From: Bacillota bacterium
GTDB lineage: Bacteria > Bacillota > UBA994 > UBA5500
Reading direction: 5' to 3'
Assembly (NCBI GenBank): GCA_023622465.1
Contig: JAMNZE010000093.1
Span: forward strand, 1 to 62,469
Length of the DNA: 62,469 bases
Of this stretch, positions 3,922 through 52,216 are shown piece after piece; within the stretch, counting starts at the first letter, position 1; each line of letters starts with the position of its first letter. The notes under the pieces are model-generated. The model was not told the DNA's origin, did not search any database, and was given only the letters and a program-made list of their open reading frames with translations. Both the position numbers and the translations under genes were made by a program.

Positions 3922-6018
3922 CTAGAGCCCTAAGAAGCGCGCCGCTTGAGTTATCAGGAAGCACAGGGTGAAACCGACCGCGGTGGGCACCAATAGAGAC
4001 AATACCGTCCACTTAGAACTCTGGGTCTCCTGTCTGATTGTAAGCAGAGTAGTACCACAGGGCCAATGATTGAGGGAAAAAAGGATGGTGCAGATGGCGG
4101 TTAGCCAGGTCCAGCCGTTTTGCACTAGCAAATGATACAATTCGGTCAGGCTGTGGAGTTCAAACAGGGCCCCTGACTGGGTATAGCTCATGAGAACTAT
4201 GGGGAGGACAATTTCGTTAGCAGGAAAGCCAAGGATGAATGCCAGTAGGATATAACCATCTAGACCTATGAGATACGCAATCGGTTGTAGCCAGGAAGCA
4301 AGCAGCTGCAACAGGCTGTTATCACCTATATAGCTATTAGCCAGTAACCAAAGGACAGCTCCAGCGGGCGCGGCGACTATGATAGCCCTTCTTAGTACAA
4401 ACAGGGTGCGATCTAACAAAGAACGAACTAGTATGCGCCCTATTTGTGGTTTGCGATAGGGTGGGAGCTCTAGAGCGAAGGAAGAAGGCAGCCCCTTAAG
4501 GACTGTCTTGGATAGTAGTTTAGATACTGCCAAGGTGATCATAACGCTGAGTACGATTAGCCCCACCAGCAAAAGGGTTCCTATTAGGCCACTGCTATCA
4601 GCACGGCGGGCAAAAAAAATACTTACTAGCGTGATGAGCAAGGGGAAACGGCCATTACAGGGTACAAAATTATTGGTGATGGTGGCTATTATACGCTCCC
4701 TAGGTGAATCAATGATGCGACAGCCTACTACCCCGACCGCATTACAACCAAAACCCATACACATGGTTAGTGCCTGTTTGCCATGGGCACAGGCCCGTTT
4801 GAAATAGTTGTCAAGGTTAAAGGCGATACGCGGTAAGTAGCCCAAGTCTTCCAGGAAAGTAAAGAGGGGAAAGAAGATGGCCATTGGTGGTAGCATGACG
4901 GCCACTACCCACGTCAAGGTGCGGTATATGCCTAGCACCAAGAAACCATGTAAGAAGTCGGGCCAGCCATAGGAACGCATGAAGCTGGTAAGCGAATCTT
5001 CTATGCGAAAAAAGATGGTGAACAACAGCTGAGACGGATAGTTGGCGCCCTTAATTGTTATCCAGAAGACGAGCACCAGTAAGGCTAGCATAATGGGAAT
5101 TCCCCAGCGCCGGGAGGTCACAATTTGGTCTATTTTTCTATCGCGCCGATCGTAGTCTTGTTGCTTGACCGTTACCGTGTTCTTGGCAATCCGCTCCGCC
5201 GTATGTATCAGACTAGTAACGATGCTGTCATGGAGTTTATCTCCTATAAGGTCTTGTTCCTGCAGAATTCTGTAGGCCTGAGCTAACCTTGCCTTCAAGC
5301 TTTGGGCAGGGCTATCCAGCACTGCTACTTCCCGCTGAAGTAGACGTAGAGCCCGCCAGCGGGCAGAGTAGTTGGTATTCTTCGCTTCGAGGGCCGGTAA
5401 CAACAGATCTACTGCCGTTTCGATGGGAGGAGCATAGTTAATCTGCAAGGGGTTCGTCTTTTCCTTTCCCATGGCCATCCGATGAATAGCTGCTTTCAGC
5501 TCCTTTAGCCCTTCGCCGTCGCGAGCGTTGGTGCCCACAACCGGTACCCCCAACAATGCGGCCAGTTTTTCCAAATCCACATGGATCTGTTTCCTCTTAG
5601 CCTCATCCAGCAGGTTTACGCAGACAACCACATGGGGCGTGATCTCCATAATTTGCAGCACCAAGTTCAGGTTGCGTTCTAAGCAAGTGGCATCGGTAAC
5701 GATTACTATAGCCTTGGCTTGGCCGGAACAGATAAAATCACGGGCCACTTCTTCCTCCACCGAATTGGCCAGGAGTGAATAGGTCCCTGGTAAATCTACA
5801 AGTATATAGTTCTGGTCTTGATACTGAAACTGGCCTCGGGCTATTGTCACAGTTTTGCCGGGCCAGTTCCCAGTATGCTGGTTGAGACCGGTCAATTGGT
5901 TGAATAGGGTGCTTTTGCCCGTATTGGGGTTGCCAGCTAAGGCAATGACCAACGAGTCCGATGGGGCTTGGCTGACGGCCAATTGGGCGTCAAGCCCTCT
6001 GAGGCTCCCGAGTCCCAT
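3922..6018 (-). CDS. feoB: Ferrous iron transport protein B
   Basis: It has a G-domain (GNPNTGKSTLFNQLTG, DLPGTYSL) followed by a polytopic permease domain. The ORF extends to 6135, but ATG 6018 (MGLGSL) follows an AAGGGGGA RBS and lies just beyond the feoA stop. Confidence 0.92.
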   Translation of the reverse strand: MGLGSLRGLDAQLAVSQAPSDSLVIALAGNPNTGKSTLFNQLTGLNQHTGNWPGKTVTIARGQFQYQDQNYILVDLPGTYSLLANSVEEEVARDFICSGQAKAIVIVTDATCLERNLNLVLQIMEITPHVVVCVNLLDEAKRKQIHVDLEKLAALLGVPVVGTNARDGEGLKELKAAIHRMAMGKEKTNPLQINYAPPIETAVDLLLPALEAKNTNYSARWRALRLLQREVAVLDSPAQSLKARLAQAYRILQEQDLIGDKLHDSIVTSLIHTAERIAKNTVTVKQQDYDRRDRKIDQIVTSRRWGIPIMLALLVLVFWITIKGANYPSQLLFTIFFRIEDSLTSFMRSYGWPDFLHGFLVLGIYRTLTWVVAVMLPPMAIFFPLFTFLEDLGYLPRIAFNLDNYFKRACAHGKQALTMCMGFGCNAVGVVGCRIIDSPRERIIATITNNFVPCNGRFPLLITLVSIFFARRADSSGLIGTLLLVGLIVLSVMITLAVSKLLSKTVLKGLPSSFALELPPYRKPQIGRILVRSLLDRTLFVLRRAIIVAAPAGAVLWLLANSYIGDNSLLQLLASWLQPIAYLIGLDGYILLAFILGFPANEIVLPIVLMSYTQSGALFELHSLTELYHLLVQNGWTWLTAICTILFSLNHWPCGTTLLTIRQETQSSKWTVLSLLVPTAVGFTLCFLITQAARFLGL

Positions 6019-6410: not shown

Positions 6411-6911
6411 ATGCCGAAGAAGAGAGAATTTCGTACCGTTAGGGGTTACCAGTTGTTGAAACAAAGTAGAGGCTCTGAACTGACACCTAGTATGGAAGAT
6501 TATCTGGAGATGATATATCGCACCTGCCAACATAGTCCCTCGGTTCGGGTAAATGCGTTGGCCCAGCAATTAAATGTACAGGCGCCATCGGTCACTCGCA
6601 CAGTACGCCGCCTAGCTGAACAGGGATATGTGACCTATCAGAAGTATGGTGTCATTGAACTGACTGCTAAGGGTGAACAGCTGGGCAAATATCTGCTGGC
6701 TCGCCATGAGACAATCGAGCAGTTTCTTTCCAATTTGGGGGTTAGGGCCAGTCTGTTAGTGGACACCGAGCTAATAGAGCATTATCTTAGCTCGGAAACG
6801 GTGCGCTCGATGGAGGCCTGGAACGCTTTCCTCGCTGAAAATGAGGACGTCTTAGAGCGTTTCGCCGAGTTCTGGCAGCAATATGCTACCAATAACAAGC
6901 CGTTATGCTAA
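6411..6911 (+). CDS. mntR: DtxR-family metalloregulator, MntR-type
   Basis: TPSMEDYLEMIY, ARHETIEQFL and ELIEHYLS conserve the positions I recall as the B. subtilis MntR metal ligands (D8, E11, H77, E99, E102, H103). A 25-aa N-terminal extension makes the start uncertain. Confidence 0.8.
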   Translation: MPKKREFRTVRGYQLLKQSRGSELTPSMEDYLEMIYRTCQHSPSVRVNALAQQLNVQAPSVTRTVRRLAEQGYVTYQKYGVIELTAKGEQLGKYLLARHETIEQFLSNLGVRASLLVDTELIEHYLSSETVRSMEAWNAFLAENEDVLERFAEFWQQYATNNKPLC

Positions 6912-6949
6912 AATTAAAGTAGCTTTCTAATAGAGGAGGAGACGAGTAA

Positions 6950-8143
6950 GTGCAGTATAATTTTGATCAGCTAATTGATCGGCGCAACACCAATAGTAGT
7001 AAACATGATAATAATAGGGTGATGTTTGGACGGGAAGACGTGTTAGAGTTATGGGTAGCCGACATGGACTTCCCTGCCCCCGCACCGGTTGTAGAGGCGA
7101 TTAAAAAGAGGGCTGAACATCCGATATATGGATACACCTTTCCGCCCGCATCGCTGTACGAGGCCATTGTAAACAGGCTGGACCGGCTTTATGGCTGGAA
7201 GATTAAGAAGGAATGGATTGTCTTTAATGCGGGCGTTGTAAATGGGCTCTATTCGGCTGTCGAAGCCTTTACCCAGCGGGGTGATGAGCTGATCGTCCAG
7301 CCCCCTGTTTATTATCCTTTCTATGGCGCGATCAAGAATACGGGGCGCCAGGTTATCCATAATCCGCTGCGGGAAGTAGATGGCCGTTACGAAATGGATT
7401 TTGAGGGCCTAGAAAAATTGTTTGAGGTTCGTACCAGCTTCCCAGTACGTACACCACGCATTAGAGCTTTGATCTTGTGCAGCCCGCATAATCCGGTGGG
7501 ACGAGTGTGGACTAAAGAAGAGTTAGAGCGCCTGGCCGAGATCTGTGTCAAGAATAATTGCCTGATTTTCTCCGATGAGATTCACTGCGAACTGTTAGCA
7601 CCCGGGGCTGAACACACGGTAACAGCTAGCCTATCGTCGGAAATTGAGCAGCGCACTATCACCTTTATGTCTGCCAGCAAAACTTTTAACATTGCTGGGT
7701 TGGCCACCTCCTTCGTCATTATTCCTAACGATGAGTTGAGGCAGCGCTATATAGCAGCCCGGGCCGGTCATAACAGTGGTAATCTCTTCGGCTTTGTAGC
7801 TACCGAAGCGGCTCTAACCCAGTGTGACGATTATCTGGAACAGTTACGGAATTATCTCCATGAGAACTATAAGTTCTTCCGCGAGTTTATTAACACCCGC
7901 TTGCCCCAATTACGGGTGGCTGAGATGGAAGGCACTTACTTAGCTTGGGTGGATATGCGCCAGCTGGGTATGGACCCGTTAGAATTGCAGGACTTCATAA
8001 GGAACAAAGCCCGCTTAGCCCTAGATGATGGCTATGCCTTCGGTCCCGGCGGCGAAGGTTTTCAGCGTTTTAATCTGGCTTGCCCCCGTTCGATTGTGGA
8101 AGAAGCCTTGTTACGGTTAGAGAAAGCGATTAACGAACTATAA
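6950..8143 (+). CDS. patB: MalY/PatB-family PLP-dependent C-S lyase (cystathionine beta-lyase-like aminotransferase)
   Basis: GTG start 8 nt after AGGAGGAG. It has the N-terminal NFDQLIDRRNTNSSKH and the SASKTFNIAG PLP-lysine motif typical of this family. Confidence 0.8.
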   Translation: MQYNFDQLIDRRNTNSSKHDNNRVMFGREDVLELWVADMDFPAPAPVVEAIKKRAEHPIYGYTFPPASLYEAIVNRLDRLYGWKIKKEWIVFNAGVVNGLYSAVEAFTQRGDELIVQPPVYYPFYGAIKNTGRQVIHNPLREVDGRYEMDFEGLEKLFEVRTSFPVRTPRIRALILCSPHNPVGRVWTKEELERLAEICVKNNCLIFSDEIHCELLAPGAEHTVTASLSSEIEQRTITFMSASKTFNIAGLATSFVIIPNDELRQRYIAARAGHNSGNLFGFVATEAALTQCDDYLEQLRNYLHENYKFFREFINTRLPQLRVAEMEGTYLAWVDMRQLGMDPLELQDFIRNKARLALDDGYAFGPGGEGFQRFNLACPRSIVEEALLRLEKAINEL

Positions 8144-48854: not shown

Positions 48855-49595
48855 ATGGCTGGCCATTCCAAGTGGAGTAATATTAAACACCGCAAAGCAA
48901 AAGCCGATGCCCAAAAGGGCAAGATATTTGCCAAGGTTGCAAGGGAAATAATTGTAGCAGTAAAACATGGTGGCGCTGATCCGGAAAGTAATTTTGCGCT
49001 CCGCATGGCCTTAGATAAGGCACGCAACTATAATATCCCCAATGAAAATATTAAACGCGCCATTCAACGGGGGTTGGGCGCCAGCGATGGCGATAACTAC
49101 GAGGAGTTCACCTATGAAGGCTATGGGCCCGGGGGTGTGGCCGTTATGCTTGACCTGCTCAGTGATAATCGCAATCGAACGGCTGCCGATATTCGCCATC
49201 TTTTTAGCAAACATGGCGGTAATTTGGGCGAGAGCGGTAGTGTAGCTTATCTCTTTGATAAAAAGGGACTAATCGTCATTGATCGGGAGCAGGAGTCCCG
49301 CTCCGAAGATGAGATGATGCTTTTGGCCTTAGAGGCAGGGGCTGAAGATATACAGGTGGAAGAAGATAGCTTTGAAATTGTAACGGACCCATCCCAGTTG
49401 GAGAGTGTGCGTAACTTCTTTGCAGAACAAGACATAGCTATCGCCTCGGCCGAGGTTTCTATGATTCCGCAAACCACCGTTTCCGTTGAGGGCGAGGTGG
49501 CTGAAAAGGTGCTGAAACTCTTGGAAGCTCTAGAAGACCACGACGATGTGCAAAACGTATACACTAACGCTGACCTGCCCGATGAGGAAGCGTAA
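48855..49595 (+). CDS. yebC: YebC/PmpR-family transcriptional regulator
   Basis: The highly conserved N-terminus MAGHSKWSNIKHRKAKADAQKGKIFAK is present. Confidence 0.93.
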   Translation: MAGHSKWSNIKHRKAKADAQKGKIFAKVAREIIVAVKHGGADPESNFALRMALDKARNYNIPNENIKRAIQRGLGASDGDNYEEFTYEGYGPGGVAVMLDLLSDNRNRTAADIRHLFSKHGGNLGESGSVAYLFDKKGLIVIDREQESRSEDEMMLLALEAGAEDIQVEEDSFEIVTDPSQLESVRNFFAEQDIAIASAEVSMIPQTTVSVEGEVAEKVLKLLEALEDHDDVQNVYTNADLPDEEA

Positions 49596-49604
49596 ATAGG
49601 TAGC

Positions 49605-49640
49605 GGGGCTGTGCGCAGAAGAAGTTCTGCGCACAGCCCC
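49605..49640. terminator. Bidirectional terminator (GC-rich palindrome family)
   Basis: GGGGCTGTGCGCAGAA-gaag-TTCTGCGCACAGCCCC, a perfect 16-bp stem between the convergent yebC and gene A. Confidence 0.75.
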
Positions 49641-49645
49641 GTTTC

Positions 49646-50503
49646 TTAGCCGATCTGACCCTGACAGTAGATGATAACTCTGGTATCAGTGTCAGTCGTG
49701 TTTGTAATGACTACCCGTAAATAGCGGGCAAAAACATCGGCCACTAGCCGGGTTGTATCCGAAGGCTGCACCAGCCGGGGGGCACTGCTACTGACGTAGT
49801 TGATTCCGTCGGCAGATATTTCTAAGTGGGCACTTACAGAACTGGGGCCCTCATTAGTAACTATGGCAGTCATAATACGGGTGTCACTGACATCTATCAC
49901 CATATCTCTAGTGTCGTTAGCTGGAACAGTCACATTCCCATGAGCATTGACAAAGGTGGGCGGAGCAACAACCGTCTGCGGCAGGGTATATTCAATCATC
50001 AGTTGCGGCCAATAATCCGAGTTGGGCGCATTAGTGGAATGGATTTGGAAAAAGGTCCCTCGAGCTAAGTTTGATGCACCTAAAATCATTAGCCCTAATG
50101 GGGCGTATTCCCCCGAGTGCCATTTTTGTACCAGGCTGGTTAAGTCTAAATTAAGCAGCCCGGTGCTAGGAGTGGGGAAAACCTGTAAGGGATTAGAGTC
50201 ATACTCGGGACAGGTGCGCCACGTCACCCAACGCCAATTCCAATTACTTATGATTCTACATACCTTAAATGTGGCTTGTGTATCGGTTTGCTTCACATTC
50301 TGGACCCTCAGCAGCAGTTGGGCATTGAGAATGGTAGCATTAGCAGGCAAAACTGATTGGGGCCTAAAATTGATCAATGTATATCCTAAAGAGCCGTTAA
50401 AATCCCGCCCCACCGACAGGTGTTGGTGGCGGGAATAATTTTGGTAAGGGCGAAACTGGTAGACGAAGGTATTGCCACGGGCTGGAAGAAAGATGGTAGG
50501 CAT
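49646..50503 (-). CDS. Hypothetical protein A: DNRLRE-like N-terminal domain plus C-terminal domain shared with gene B
   Basis: 285 aa with an RBS GGGAGG 9 nt before the ATG. The N-terminal 175 aa carry the pattern LINF..LPANATILNAQLLL...W.WRWVTW...PQLMIEY. There is no signal peptide. The C-terminal 80 aa align to the gene B tail. Confidence 0.6.
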   Translation of the reverse strand: MPTIFLPARGNTFVYQFRPYQNYSRHQHLSVGRDFNGSLGYTLINFRPQSVLPANATILNAQLLLRVQNVKQTDTQATFKVCRIISNWNWRWVTWRTCPEYDSNPLQVFPTPSTGLLNLDLTSLVQKWHSGEYAPLGLMILGASNLARGTFFQIHSTNAPNSDYWPQLMIEYTLPQTVVAPPTFVNAHGNVTVPANDTRDMVIDVSDTRIMTAIVTNEGPSSVSAHLEISADGINYVSSSAPRLVQPSDTTRLVADVFARYLRVVITNTTDTDTRVIIYCQGQIG

Positions 50504-50620
50504 AGCAAATCGCCTCCCTAGTTAGCTCTTTTATAGCAGTATATGTTGCACAAAATATATATGACAGTTGAAGATGAGAACCAATATGCTAGTAACACTG
50601 TTGTGTATAGTGTCATATCT

Positions 50621-50652
50621 TGATACAAATGCAGCCAGCTGCATTGATATCA
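50621..50652. promoter_or_regulatory. 32-bp imperfect palindrome upstream of gene B
   Basis: TGATAcaAATGCAGCcaGCTGCATTgaTATCA. The core 8-bp arms are perfect. It ends 4 nt before the GAAGAGGTG RBS region. Confidence 0.4.
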
Positions 50653-50671
50653 AGTGAAGAGGTGAGCACGG

Positions 50672-51556
50672 ATGCCCAACTATAAAGTATTTCAAGATGC
50701 CCCCTCGGAACTGAGGGTCCGAATCTATGGTCTTGATAACGGCCTGGATCAATCAATAAAGGTAGACGCCACAGGCGCGGTAGCTATTCAAAATGATGGC
50801 GGTAGCCTGACCGTAGACGCCACCGATCTGGATATCCGCGACTTGAATAATGCCACTGACAATGTACTGGTCTATGGTAGCGACGGCGTAGACAATCAGC
50901 CTCTGCTTACCGATGCAACCGGTGCCTTAGCCATCCAGGATAATGGTGGTAGCCTAACCGTAGACGCCACCGATTTAGATATCCGTGACCTAGATAACGC
51001 CACTGACAATGTACTGGTCTATGGTAGTGACGGCGTAGATAATCTGCCTCTGCTTACCGATGCAACCGGTGCCTTAGCCATTCAGGATAATGGTGGTAGC
51101 CTAACCGTAGATGCCACCGATTTAGATATCCGTGATTTGGATAACACCACCGATAGCGTTTTGGTCTACGGTAACGATGGTGATAATAATGTGGCTCTAC
51201 TCACCGACGCCAACGGTGTGTTACAGGTGGCAGTCGTCTCCAGCTATAGGGAGGCCTCTGAAACGGTCAATACAGGTGCCACTTTCGTCGGCTCTACCGC
51301 CCAAGACATTAGTCTCCACCCCAACTATACCTGGTTTATAAAGAATACCGGTGTTAATACGGCCACTGTGAAGCTGCAGATTAGCCCTAACAATGTGGAT
51401 TGGGTAGACGATGGGACGGATCACGAGCTCGAGGCCGGCGAATCTATGGTTCTCGTCGCCAACGTGTTCCTTCGCTACACTCGGGTAGCCTATCAATCGA
51501 CGGTCACCGACGAGGATACGACCCTAGAATTAACCTGGCAGGCTTACGGAGGTTAA
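50672..51556 (+). CDS. Hypothetical protein B: 3 x 49-aa Asp/Thr/Gly-rich repeats plus C-terminal domain shared with gene A
   Basis: 294 aa with no signal peptide. The repeat unit is DATGALAIQDNGGSLTVDATDLDIRDLDNATDNVLVYGSDGVDNLPLLT. The tail ...LVANVFLRYTRVAYQSTVTDEDTTLELTWQAY aligns to gene A. Confidence 0.6.
   Translation: MPNYKVFQDAPSELRVRIYGLDNGLDQSIKVDATGAVAIQNDGGSLTVDATDLDIRDLNNATDNVLVYGSDGVDNQPLLTDATGALAIQDNGGSLTVDATDLDIRDLDNATDNVLVYGSDGVDNLPLLTDATGALAIQDNGGSLTVDATDLDIRDLDNTTDSVLVYGNDGDNNVALLTDANGVLQVAVVSSYREASETVNTGATFVGSTAQDISLHPNYTWFIKNTGVNTATVKLQISPNNVDWVDDGTDHELEAGESMVLVANVFLRYTRVAYQSTVTDEDTTLELTWQAYGG
50765..51205 (+). repeat. Three in-frame 147-bp tandem repeats
   Basis: The units are 50765..50911, 50912..51058 and 51059..51205. 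Units 1 and 2 are nearly identical in their 3' halves. Units 2 and 3 are nearly identical in their 5' halves. Confidence 0.9.
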
Positions 51557-51566
51557 AGAGAAGTCT

Positions 51567-51597
51567 GGTAGCAGCCGAAGTCCGGCTGCTACCTTTT
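51567..51597 (+). terminator. Intrinsic terminator
   Basis: Stem GGTAGCAGCCG, 5-nt loop, stem CGGCTGCTACC, followed by TTTT. Confidence 0.75.
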
Positions 51598-51664
51598 CAT
51601 GTATGCAATTACCAGCTTGTGGTTATACTACTCCTGGTTATATTAACCAGGAGGTGAATACAAC

Positions 51665-52216
51665 ATGAAGCGTCGTTGGCTAGTTTTGGTGGGCATTATA
51701 GCCGGCGTTTATATCCTCATCGCTTCTGGTTGGCTAACAACCTTTTTGGCCAATACAGCCACTGATCATATACGCGAACCTGAATACCAACGTTATTGGG
51801 CTGAGCTTTTCGGCCGGAATGCCCTTGTGAACTATCAATTAGAATACGACTGCGGTCACAGTCTTGTAGTGGCTGAGCCCGATTTGACCCCGGAACTGCT
51901 CATGGTCGCCCCTCACAATATGGAACAAACGGTGCGAGCCATGCAAATAAAACCGCGGTTGGATGACGTGATACTTCTACAAGGTACAGTGGCAGCCGCC
52001 TGTCCCGATTGCCAGAGTTACTTCTGGATCGGCGAACAGGATGGGTGCGTGGCTGTCTGGCAGGGGAAGGATAGGGCCACCGCCGTTTTTCTGCAACGCT
52101 TTGAGGATATGTCGGTGGCGCGCCTGCCAACGGCAGTGCAGCAGCAGCTGCGAGAAGGCATTGTGGTTCACTCGGAAGATGAACTGGCCCAAGTACTGGA
52201 AGGACTCGATCGCTAA
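51665..52216 (+). CDS. BofC-like protein (bypass-of-forespore C C-terminal domain)
   Basis: An N-terminal TM/signal helix is present. The C-terminal WIGEQDGCVAVWQG...LPTAVQQQLREGIVVHSEDELAQVLEGL resembles B. subtilis BofC, whose gene also sits next to ruvA. Confidence 0.6.
   Translation: MKRRWLVLVGIIAGVYILIASGWLTTFLANTATDHIREPEYQRYWAELFGRNALVNYQLEYDCGHSLVVAEPDLTPELLMVAPHNMEQTVRAMQIKPRLDDVILLQGTVAAACPDCQSYFWIGEQDGCVAVWQGKDRATAVFLQRFEDMSVARLPTAVQQQLREGIVVHSEDELAQVLEGLDR

Follow-up and report, generated by a model that had tools for sequence, protein, structure and literature searches.

The stretch of DNA analysed here (62,469 nucleotides, nt; contig JAMNZE010000093.1 of assembly GCA_023622465.1, from a Bacillota bacterium of the lineage UBA994; UBA5500), hereafter the window, carries a pair of divergently transcribed genes, A and B, whose protein products have quite different N-terminal regions and end in the same C-terminal domain, DUF6385. 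The pair lies between a YebC-family gene, which ends at 49595, and a BofC_C-domain gene, which starts at 51665 and is followed by ruvC, ruvA and ruvB. In what follows we describe the two genes, their relatives in other genomes and the evidence that they may encode proteins of the endospore surface. The features of the locus are as follows.

49605..49640, GC-rich perfect hairpin between the convergent yebC (+ strand) and A (- strand), likely a bidirectional terminator
49646..50503, - strand, gene A, 285 amino acids (aa): DNRLRE/CBM96 head and DUF6385 tail
49655..49894, - strand, tail of A (residues 204-283), DUF6385 jelly-roll, from Pfam PF19912 and Foldseek
49991..50488, - strand, head of A (residues 6-171), CBM96/DNRLRE beta-sandwich, from hidden Markov models (HMMs) and Foldseek
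50534..50549, - strand, CATA-type -10-like element CATAtacTG within the block GCAACATATACTGCTA, ending 33 nt before the ATG of A
50595..50622, + strand, sigma-K-type promoter candidate for B, AC-N17-CATATCTTG, ending 49 nt before the ATG
50630..50643, 14-bp palindrome TGCAGC(c/t)AGCTGCA directly downstream of the B -10 element, from an alignment of four relatives
50672..51556, + strand, gene B, 294 aa: N-terminal peptide, 49-aa repeats and DUF6385 tail
50672..50716, + strand, N-terminal peptide of B, MPNYKVFQDAPSELR, kept across the B-like family
50717..51229, + strand, repeat stalk of B: one partial, two full 49-aa and one shortened unit, core ATDLDIRDLxxAxDSVxxYGxDG
51305..51544, + strand, tail of B (residues 212-291), DUF6385 jelly-roll, from PF19912 and Foldseek
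51567..51597, + strand, intrinsic terminator of B: 11-bp stem with 8 GC pairs, then TTTTC

Both open reading frames (ORFs) lie between yebC and bofC-ruvCAB as described in a first-pass annotation made from the sequence alone, and the two terminators that it had called strong are so by calculation. The segment 49596-49650, containing the yebC/A hairpin, has a folding free energy of -42.6 kcal/mol on the + strand and -36.6 on the - strand (z ~-8.9, equalled by none of 200 shuffles). Its U-rich tail is restricted to the + strand version, so that termination of gene A may have to depend on the hairpin alone. For the B terminator (segment 51557-51610) the corresponding value is -24 kcal/mol (z -4.9), with a run of U after the stem.

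What unites A and B is the C-terminal domain. The two tails align by BLASTP at E=7e-07 (31% identity over 72 aa), and their local alignment score of 94, against a shuffle mean of 26 (standard deviation 4.6; z=14.9), was reached by none of 2000 shuffles, so the common domain seen in the first pass is statistically significant. The family name that had been tentatively offered for it also proved right: PF19912 (cut-off 26.8 bits) scores 62.2 bits in A (E=4.9e-17) and 93.5 bits in B (E=8.3e-27). Neither protein matches a functionally characterised family, and PDB sequence searches with the single proteins and with the tail profile gave no significant match for either. The reported lack of a signal peptide or transmembrane helix in A and B likewise holds, the maximum Kyte-Doolittle mean over 19 residues being 1.1-1.2. 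One earlier claim did not survive: the supposed richness in N-x-S/T sequons is explained by composition (6 in A against 3.3 expected, P=0.09; 4 in B against 3.7, P=0.53), and since the excess is not significant the hint of N-glycosylation has been abandoned.

The head of A had been likened to a DNRLRE/carbohydrate-binding-type beta-sandwich, and it scores above the cut-offs of both relevant models, NCBIfam DNRLRE (NF033679; 84.7 bits, cut-off 34, E=7e-24) and Pfam CBM96 (PF24517; 54 bits, cut-off 26, E=2e-14). An AlphaFold model of A from a 39-sequence alignment has a mean predicted local distance difference test score (pLDDT) of 93.3 and consists of two beta-sandwiches, with the start of the protein, MPTIFLP, forming strand 1 of the carbohydrate-binding module (CBM). 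Foldseek matches the modelled head to a chondroitin-sulfate-binding CBM (8wab, E=1e-11, template modelling score, TM, 0.83) and to an alginate-binding CBM96 (7vbo, E=4e-7, TM 0.65), and the tail to PirA (3x0t and 7fcn, TM 0.67-0.70). A contains three Cys residues, none of them located in an N-terminal extension. A reading of A as a double jelly-roll capsid protein (PM2 P2, STIV) was rejected at TM ~0.23, and Cry5B and Vip3, among the low-TM matches, reached TM values of 0.12-0.24. In a literature search DNRLRE appeared in CBM96 and surface-repeat contexts only.

B is built quite differently. Its N-terminal peptide follows the B-like consensus M-P-N-[YF]-K-V-F-Q-D-x-P-x-x-L-[KR], derived from a logo of 86 B-like proteins (M-P63%-N61%-x-K-V70%-F-Q-D-x-P60%-x-x-L75%-[KR]78%). 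The 49-aa repeats noted in the first pass are recovered by Tandem Repeats Finder as 3.0 copies of a 147-bp unit at 85% identity (50781-51218), and a repeat HMM places ~3.7 copies of the acidic repeat on the protein (residues 16-49, 50-98, 99-147 and 148-185). B has no Cys and is 16% Asp+Glu; several Asp residues of the repeat core are nearly invariant. As a speculation, such Asp-rich, Cys-free repeats could bind cations (Ca2+). Two candidate identities were discarded: YabP for the repeats, which proved spurious (a faint precomputed PF07873 match and TIGR02892 at E=0.08, far under the cut-offs), and a EutS microcompartment match (19.6 bits against a cut-off of 123).

In an AlphaFold model of B from a 53-sequence alignment (pLDDT 82), eight strands make up a beta-sandwich in the tail, at pLDDT >90; each repeat contributes two short strands to an extended stalk, and the first residues are disordered (pLDDT 54 for residues 1-10). 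Among the 50 PDB matches listed by Foldseek for the B tail, with TM values for Ena normalised to the target, the best is again PirA (3x0t, E=5e-5, TM 0.64-0.69). Subunits of the Ena spore appendages follow closely (Ena2A 9i0y at 6e-5, Ena1B 7a02 at 2e-4, Ena3A 8pdz at 5e-4 and Ena1C 9t3p with TM 0.66); overall the Ena matches span E=6e-5 to 4e-3 and TM 0.53-0.66, with four in the top 12 and Ena1C at rank 40. Lower-ranked matches include XepA, the lambda tail tip and cupins. Because PirA and cupins score alike, the Ena match is not specific. In BFVD the matches of B are to small jelly-rolls of viruses (TM 0.78) and to numerous fibre-plus-knob proteins, some of the collagen-plus-C1q type.

A tail-only profile search of 1.84 billion representative sequences returned 935 clusters at 50% identity, of which 150 were listed. 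Each of these 150 has DUF6385 at its extreme C-terminus, and in 129 no more than two residues separate the end of the protein from that of the HMM; A and B themselves end 2-3 residues past it. The listed representatives comprise 40 A-like proteins with a CBM96 head, 44 B-like proteins with 1-4 repeats, 33 short stand-alone DUF6385 proteins (160 aa or less) and 33 with other heads. The first-pass picture of two different heads on one module is thus true of A and B and general in the family, which has at least four kinds of head. Across the B-like family the repeat number ranges from 1 to 5. All named carriers of DUF6385 homologues are Bacillota: Carboxydothermus, Caloramator, Thermobrachium, Desulforadius, Syntrophothermus, Symbiobacterium, Ruminiclostridium, Anaerocolumna, Tepidibacter, Dethiothermospora, Lucifera, and metagenome-assembled genomes (MAGs) of Moorellales and Veillonellaceae. 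The named genera belong mostly to spore-forming lineages. A literature search found no paper mentioning DUF6385.

Some members of the family deserve separate mention. Several stand-alone proteins of 128-158 aa carry Cys/Lys/Arg-rich N-terminal extensions (P0184, P0189, P0193, P0196, P0238, P0252, P0261 and the gene at 4601-5050 of locus L039). The largest cluster seen, at L029 6865-10136, has four consecutive DUF6385 genes (234, 189, 314 and 308 aa) followed by a gene for a family 2 glycosyltransferase (GT2) fused to tetratricopeptide repeats (TPR). At L024 9710-10565 the repeats and the tail of a B-like gene appear to fall in separate, overlapping ORFs, which probably reflects a frameshift, a sequencing error or decay to a pseudogene. 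Anaerocolumna sp. MB42-C2 encodes, 3 kb upstream of a B-like gene (L012 4624-6732), a 702-aa protein that has a CBM96-type head and no DUF6385 and may represent an alternative partner architecture.

Genome contigs were scanned with a profile from a trimmed 9-sequence alignment, and comparison of the yebC-bofC interval between relatives shows that the pair is an insertion, as had been suspected, neither core nor universal at this site. The nearest relative (L121, MAG GCA_012727835.1), 99.4% identical over ~10 kb, has the order yebC, A, B, bofC, ruvCAB, whereas two others with YebC 73% and 71% identical (L123 and L124) keep ylbF-ychF-nadE-yebC and have bofC-ruvCAB directly after 133 and 238 bp, respectively. 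In a further relative (L122, YebC 84% identical) the slot (6869-8091) is filled by two unrelated genes, of 222 and 185 aa, whose products each have a hydrophobic N-terminal segment and are probably secreted. The yebC-bofC gap is therefore a variable slot in which A and B are lineage-specific cargo, and it looks like an integration hotspot. A and B do not differ from their flanks in GC content, and the insertion is therefore not foreign DNA of recent arrival.

Between the window and the L121 genome there is a clean indel of exactly one 147-bp repeat unit in B. A repeat number that varies between near-identical strains is behaviour expected of an exposed fibre. Other relatives also keep the divergent pair: L008, and three members of the same clade (L001-L003), which have in addition a gene for a 272-283-aa protein made of TPR only, between B and bofC. 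The coordinates of this gene are:

L001 8948-9799, TPR-only protein
L002 9223-10041, TPR-only protein
L003 2614-3432, TPR-only protein

No remnant of it was found by tblastn in the B-bofC gap of the window (51557-51664), and the gene is also missing from L121.

The association of A with B extends well beyond this clade. In 26 non-redundant Bacillota loci with a B-like gene, a second DUF6385 gene was present within ~6 kb in 19-20, two of the six exceptions lying at contig ends, and in 14 of the 26 loci there was a bona fide A-like gene (CBM96 plus DUF6385). In Carboxydothermus islandicus the pair is divergent and sits between ksgA and yabG; in Caloramator, Thermobrachium and Desulforadius the two genes are in tandem; in Symbiobacterium and several MAGs they lie a few kb apart; and a Veillonellaceae MAG has another divergent DUF6385 pair. 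The two genes are thus co-conserved across genera at unrelated chromosomal sites, as the first-pass annotation would have them, and we propose that their products are a co-evolving pair of structural proteins.

Evidence for when the genes might be expressed comes from their upstream regions. In an alignment of four relatives the -35 ACA and the -10 CATAT.TTG of the B promoter candidate are invariant whilst the spacer is variable. On the A side the block GCAACATATACTGCTA is invariant in the window, L001, L002 and L008 and fits the -10 consensus of mother-cell sigma factors; we infer that its CATA element may serve as the mother-cell-sigma -10 of A. The palindrome is conserved in the four relatives apart from single-base differences, and is perfect only in L001 and L002, whereas the adjoining positions vary; it could be a candidate operator common to the divergent genes or a hairpin in the 5' untranslated region.

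The promoter motifs are not peculiar to this locus. We scanned 33 upstream regions of DUF6385 genes and, as controls, 215 that precede other genes of these loci. The sigma-K-type motif AC-N16/17-CATAnnnT[AG] was present in 8 of the 33, a number reached by none of 300 dinucleotide shuffles (mean 0.26), as against 11 of the 215 controls (Fisher P=0.001), and six of the eight end 41-57 nt upstream of the start codon. The CATA-type -10 on its own was found in 14 of 33 regions and 31 of 215 controls (P=0.0004). The sigma-E -10 was not enriched (4 of 33 regions, reached by 9 of 300 shuffles), and sigma-G/F and extended sigma-A -10 motifs were seen in none of the 33. These patterns support transcription of DUF6385 genes by a mother-cell sigma factor, as far as promoter sequence can indicate.

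The genes that accompany the module elsewhere point towards protein glycosylation. Directly downstream of the B-like gene there is a GT2-TPR gene in nine of ten loci tested; in the 26 tabulated loci it is present in 12, usually 22-600 bp from the B-like gene, and the enzyme occurs in single (~600 aa) and double (~1200 aa) forms. Two further GT2-TPR genes flank a short stand-alone DUF6385 gene. One of the stand-alone genes listed above, P0252, adjoins a polysaccharide deacetylase gene and two GT2-TPR genes. Nucleotide-sugar and glycan enzymes predominate in 129 further neighbours from 23 loci, the main families being hexapeptide acetyltransferases, GT2 and GT1-like enzymes, GFO/IDH oxidoreductases, DegT aminotransferases, NTP-transferases, PglF-like dehydratases and epimerases; the 25 commonest families include no flagellar and no phage structural one. 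Sporulation genes also occur nearby in several loci: Carboxydothermus has yabG (Peptidase_U57) and SipL, Syntrophothermus a Germane/GerM-type gene, Caloramator a Spo0E-like gene and the window bofC.

Both halves of B have relatives in viruses. The 49-aa repeat occurs on at least 80 IMG/VR contigs, in at least 79 proteins (140-1484 aa, 1-10 units); the phage-type repeat-only proteins have a conserved N-terminus different from that of the B-like family, and one of them matches tail-fibre and baseplate PHROGs. Two distinct 252-aa viral proteins (from IMG/VR loci L045/L046 and L048/L049) combine one repeat with a DUF6385 tail, the latter at 35.9 bits against the Pfam cut-off of 26.8 and with 91% probability in hhalign. 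They are laid out as one 49-aa repeat, a Gly-rich run ('ISIDDGGG') and the DUF6385 tail, at these positions:

L049 7869-8627, 252-aa phage protein
L046 7911-8669, 252-aa phage protein

The L049 copy lies downstream of portal and major-head genes. A weak match (2e-4) of the 252-aa protein to a major-tail-protein PHROG was also seen. The architecture of B is therefore common to phage virion proteins, and the sharing of repeat and knob suggests a common origin of the DUF6385 pair and phage fibres. The core of the shared repeat is DLDxxTDxVLVYGNDG, and the phage proteins differ in belonging to a portal/major-head module, in their N-terminus and extra Gly-rich repeats, and in having neither a CBM partner nor a GT2-TPR neighbour. 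A tblastn search of 50,697 deposited phage genomes found nothing for B; PHROGs gave no match for A, and the one family matched by B is of unknown function, no stretch of the match being significant by itself. No phage genes flank A and B in the window or in relatives, and none of the Bacillota loci with a B-like gene resembles a prophage.

Taking these observations together, we consider the chances about even that A and B are mother-cell-made, probably glycosylated proteins of the spore surface, B being a fibre of variable length and A an adaptor that binds glycans, connected by way of the DUF6385 knob. On this model the sporulating mother cell would make both proteins, which have no export signals, and they would assemble on the outer surface of the endospore, as part of the outer coat, the crust, an exosporium nap or an appendage. 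The DUF6385 jelly-roll of each would act as the module for oligomerisation and co-assembly. B would be the fibre, with a 15-residue N-terminal peptide for anchoring or docking, a stalk of 1-5 acidic 49-aa beta-repeats and a C-terminal knob, its repeat number setting the length. A, which has the same knob and so could join the B assembly, would act as an adaptor or a lectin, in which the CBM96/DNRLRE sandwich, of a type that binds acidic polysaccharides, might tie the assembly to a glycan layer or to an external substrate. Since GT2-TPR and nucleotide-sugar enzymes are encoded with the module in other lineages, A and B are probably O-glycosylated, and by analogy with BclA3, modified by SgtA in Clostridioides difficile, this would take place in the cytoplasm before deposition. 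Sporulation-specific expression, a place on the spore surface, the oligomeric state, glycosylation and glycan binding are all points that we infer.

Several considerations weigh against this model. The whole 62-kb window holds no GT2-TPR, GT2 or TPR homologue, so that glycosylation at this locus is doubly indirect. The sigma-K-type consensus used is a relaxed one, present in only 8 of 33 regions, its strict form is of marginal significance (P=0.06), and the control genes may include co-regulated ones. At the locus itself the -10 element of B ends in TG, not the consensus TA, which is one departure, and no correctly spaced -35 'AC' lies upstream of the A element. The sporulation-gene neighbourhood of DUF6385 loci is anecdotal, and for one carrier of the module, Syntrophothermus lipocalidus, spores have to our knowledge not been observed. 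Sequence similarity to DUF3992 or DUF4183 was not detected in A, B or 31 tails (DUF3992 at E up to 5). Jelly-rolls are very common, and matches of modelled tails at E 5e-5 to 5e-4 and TM 0.53-0.69 are no proof of homology to Ena.

Three other explanations compete with it. The products might instead form a vegetative-cell or cytoplasmic structure unconnected with sporulation and glycosylated in the cytoplasm by GT2-TPR, either staying inside as a self-assembling body or inclusion or reaching the cell surface by a non-classical route, like flagellins and some S-layer-associated proteins, which we think unlikely but worth keeping in mind. The absence of export signals fits such a structure, GT2-TPR enzymes also glycosylate flagellins (Listeria GmaR and enzymes of Paenibacillus), the sigma-K-like motif is found in only about a quarter of upstream regions, and the best fold match, PirA, is not a spore protein. 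Subunits of the F-ENA type, moreover, can self-assemble in a cytoplasm (PMC12357932). Set against this, flagellar and secretion genes are not among the frequent neighbours, extended sigma-A -10 elements are absent from the upstream regions scanned whereas CATA-type -10 elements are enriched, and the named carriers fall in spore-forming lineages. A phage-type function, with the two proteins as relics or functioning components (fibre plus receptor-binding adaptor) of a prophage, tailocin or phage-like particle, would fit the commonness of the repeat on IMG/VR contigs, for a repeat-plus-DUF6385 protein in a genuine phage structural module, for the repeat-only protein matching tail-fibre and baseplate PHROGs, and for the fibre-plus-knob proteins that dominate the BFVD matches, with XepA and the lambda tail tip among those in the PDB. 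It is nonetheless improbable: phage genes neither flank the pair nor figure among the frequent neighbour families, B is unmatched in deposited phage genomes and A in PHROGs, the GC content is that of the flanks, the B-like N-terminus is not that of phage-type repeat proteins, and it is GT2-TPR and sugar genes, rather than tail genes, that accompany the pair consistently.

Very improbable, in our estimation, is a carbohydrate-active or lectin system or a PirAB-like binary toxin, in which the CBM of A would target a polysaccharide or host glycan with B as its partner. The head of A is a bona fide CBM96/DNRLRE domain resembling chondroitin-sulfate- and alginate-binding modules, both tails resemble PirA, one half of a binary toxin, and Cry5B and Vip3 are among the low-TM matches; A and B, however, contain no catalytic, pore-forming or PirB-like domain and no signal peptide, the TM values to Cry and Vip proteins are low, and the neighbouring genes are those of glycan synthesis, not degradation. 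The first-pass annotation had offered a spore-surface pair, a self-assembling cytoplasmic structure and a domesticated phage fibre. The spore-surface proposal has gathered the most indirect support (sigma-K-type promoters, linked GT2-TPR genes, the Ena-like fold and the distribution in spore-forming Bacillota), and the phage fibre stands as ancestry or a shared module and falls as a present prophage function.

A bolder form of the spore-surface model, which we advance tentatively and think rather less likely than otherwise to be right, is that DUF6385 proteins form an unrecognised class of glycosylated endospore fibres or appendages in Clostridia, Negativicutes and allied Bacillota, with phage-fibre ancestry and a hook-spacer-head plan convergent with F-ENA. 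The MPN peptide of a B trimer would dock on the next DUF6385 knob, or on that of A, the repeat number would set the periodicity and GT2-TPR would decorate the stalk.

The DUF6385 and CBM96 domains are already catalogued, and neither is a new fold or family; found in no paper are the conserved pairing, the GT2-TPR linkage, the sporulation-type promoters, the Ena-like fold, the repeat switching and the phage homologues. Spore surfaces decide adhesion, clumping, dispersal and interaction with hosts, and very little is known in molecular terms about the fibres on the spores of anaerobes, work on Ena, F-ENA and BclA having been done mostly in Bacillus and C. difficile. Were the spore-surface model true, DUF6385 would gain a role, a partner logic of different heads on one assembly module, dedicated glycosyltransferases and a link to phage fibres; were it wrong, the module would still be a well-defined and widely conserved system of a substrate and its GT2-TPR.

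How, then, does the module compare with systems that are known? In function its nearest precedents are fibre systems of the spore surface. CBM96/DNRLRE proteins share with A a head that passes both curated HMM cut-offs and superposes on 8wab and 7vbo, but the known modules are attached to secreted catalytic domains, whereas A has no enzyme and no signal peptide and is fused to DUF6385. Known coat, exosporium and Ena proteins are deposited by the mother cell without a signal peptide, as we suppose for A and B. BclA (C. difficile BclA3, Bacillus anthracis BclA) offers a close parallel in layout, having a short N-terminal peptide, a variable repeat stalk and a C-terminal jelly-roll knob; BclA is mother-cell-made and, like A and B, lacks a signal peptide. 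The length of the BclA stalk is polymorphic at strain level, as is the repeat number of B. In C. difficile the exosporium protein BclA3 is O-GlcNAcylated on Thr in its repeat stalk by SgtA, a GT-A plus TPR enzyme encoded beside bclA3 (PMC7157674), to which the GT2-TPR neighbour in 12 of 26 B-like loci corresponds. The differences lie in the stalk, which is collagen G-x-x in BclA and a 49-aa acidic beta-repeat in B; in the knob, BclA-C/C1q in the one and DUF6385 in the other, with no BclA-C Pfam match in A or B; and in the paralogous CBM-head partner and the lack of a glycosyltransferase in the window.

With S- and L-ENA (Ena1A/B/C, Ena2A, Ena3A), which are spore-surface fibres made of subunits without signal peptides, the modelled tails may share a jelly-roll of ~100 aa, and the Cys-rich extensions of some stand-alone DUF6385 proteins recall the Ena N-terminal connector; A and B themselves differ in having large heads and no short Cys connector. 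In F-ENA, a DUF4183 beta head is common to the fibre subunit and a stalked F-Anchor, and through it trimers co-assemble on one another; the N-terminus has a conserved M-P hook for docking on the following head, the spacer varies in length, and clostridial members carry putative O-glycans (PMC12357932). A and B are alike in their shared small all-beta domain, in the variable spacer of B and in the missing export signal. They differ in belonging to another Pfam family, DUF4183 giving no sequence match and being absent from the 50 Foldseek matches listed, and the B peptide, MPNYKVF, fits the hook motif M-P-psi-psi-$-P-psi in part only. In its organisation the A/B module mirrors the logic of both BclA3/SgtA and F-ENA with unrelated domains, which favours the spore-surface reading.

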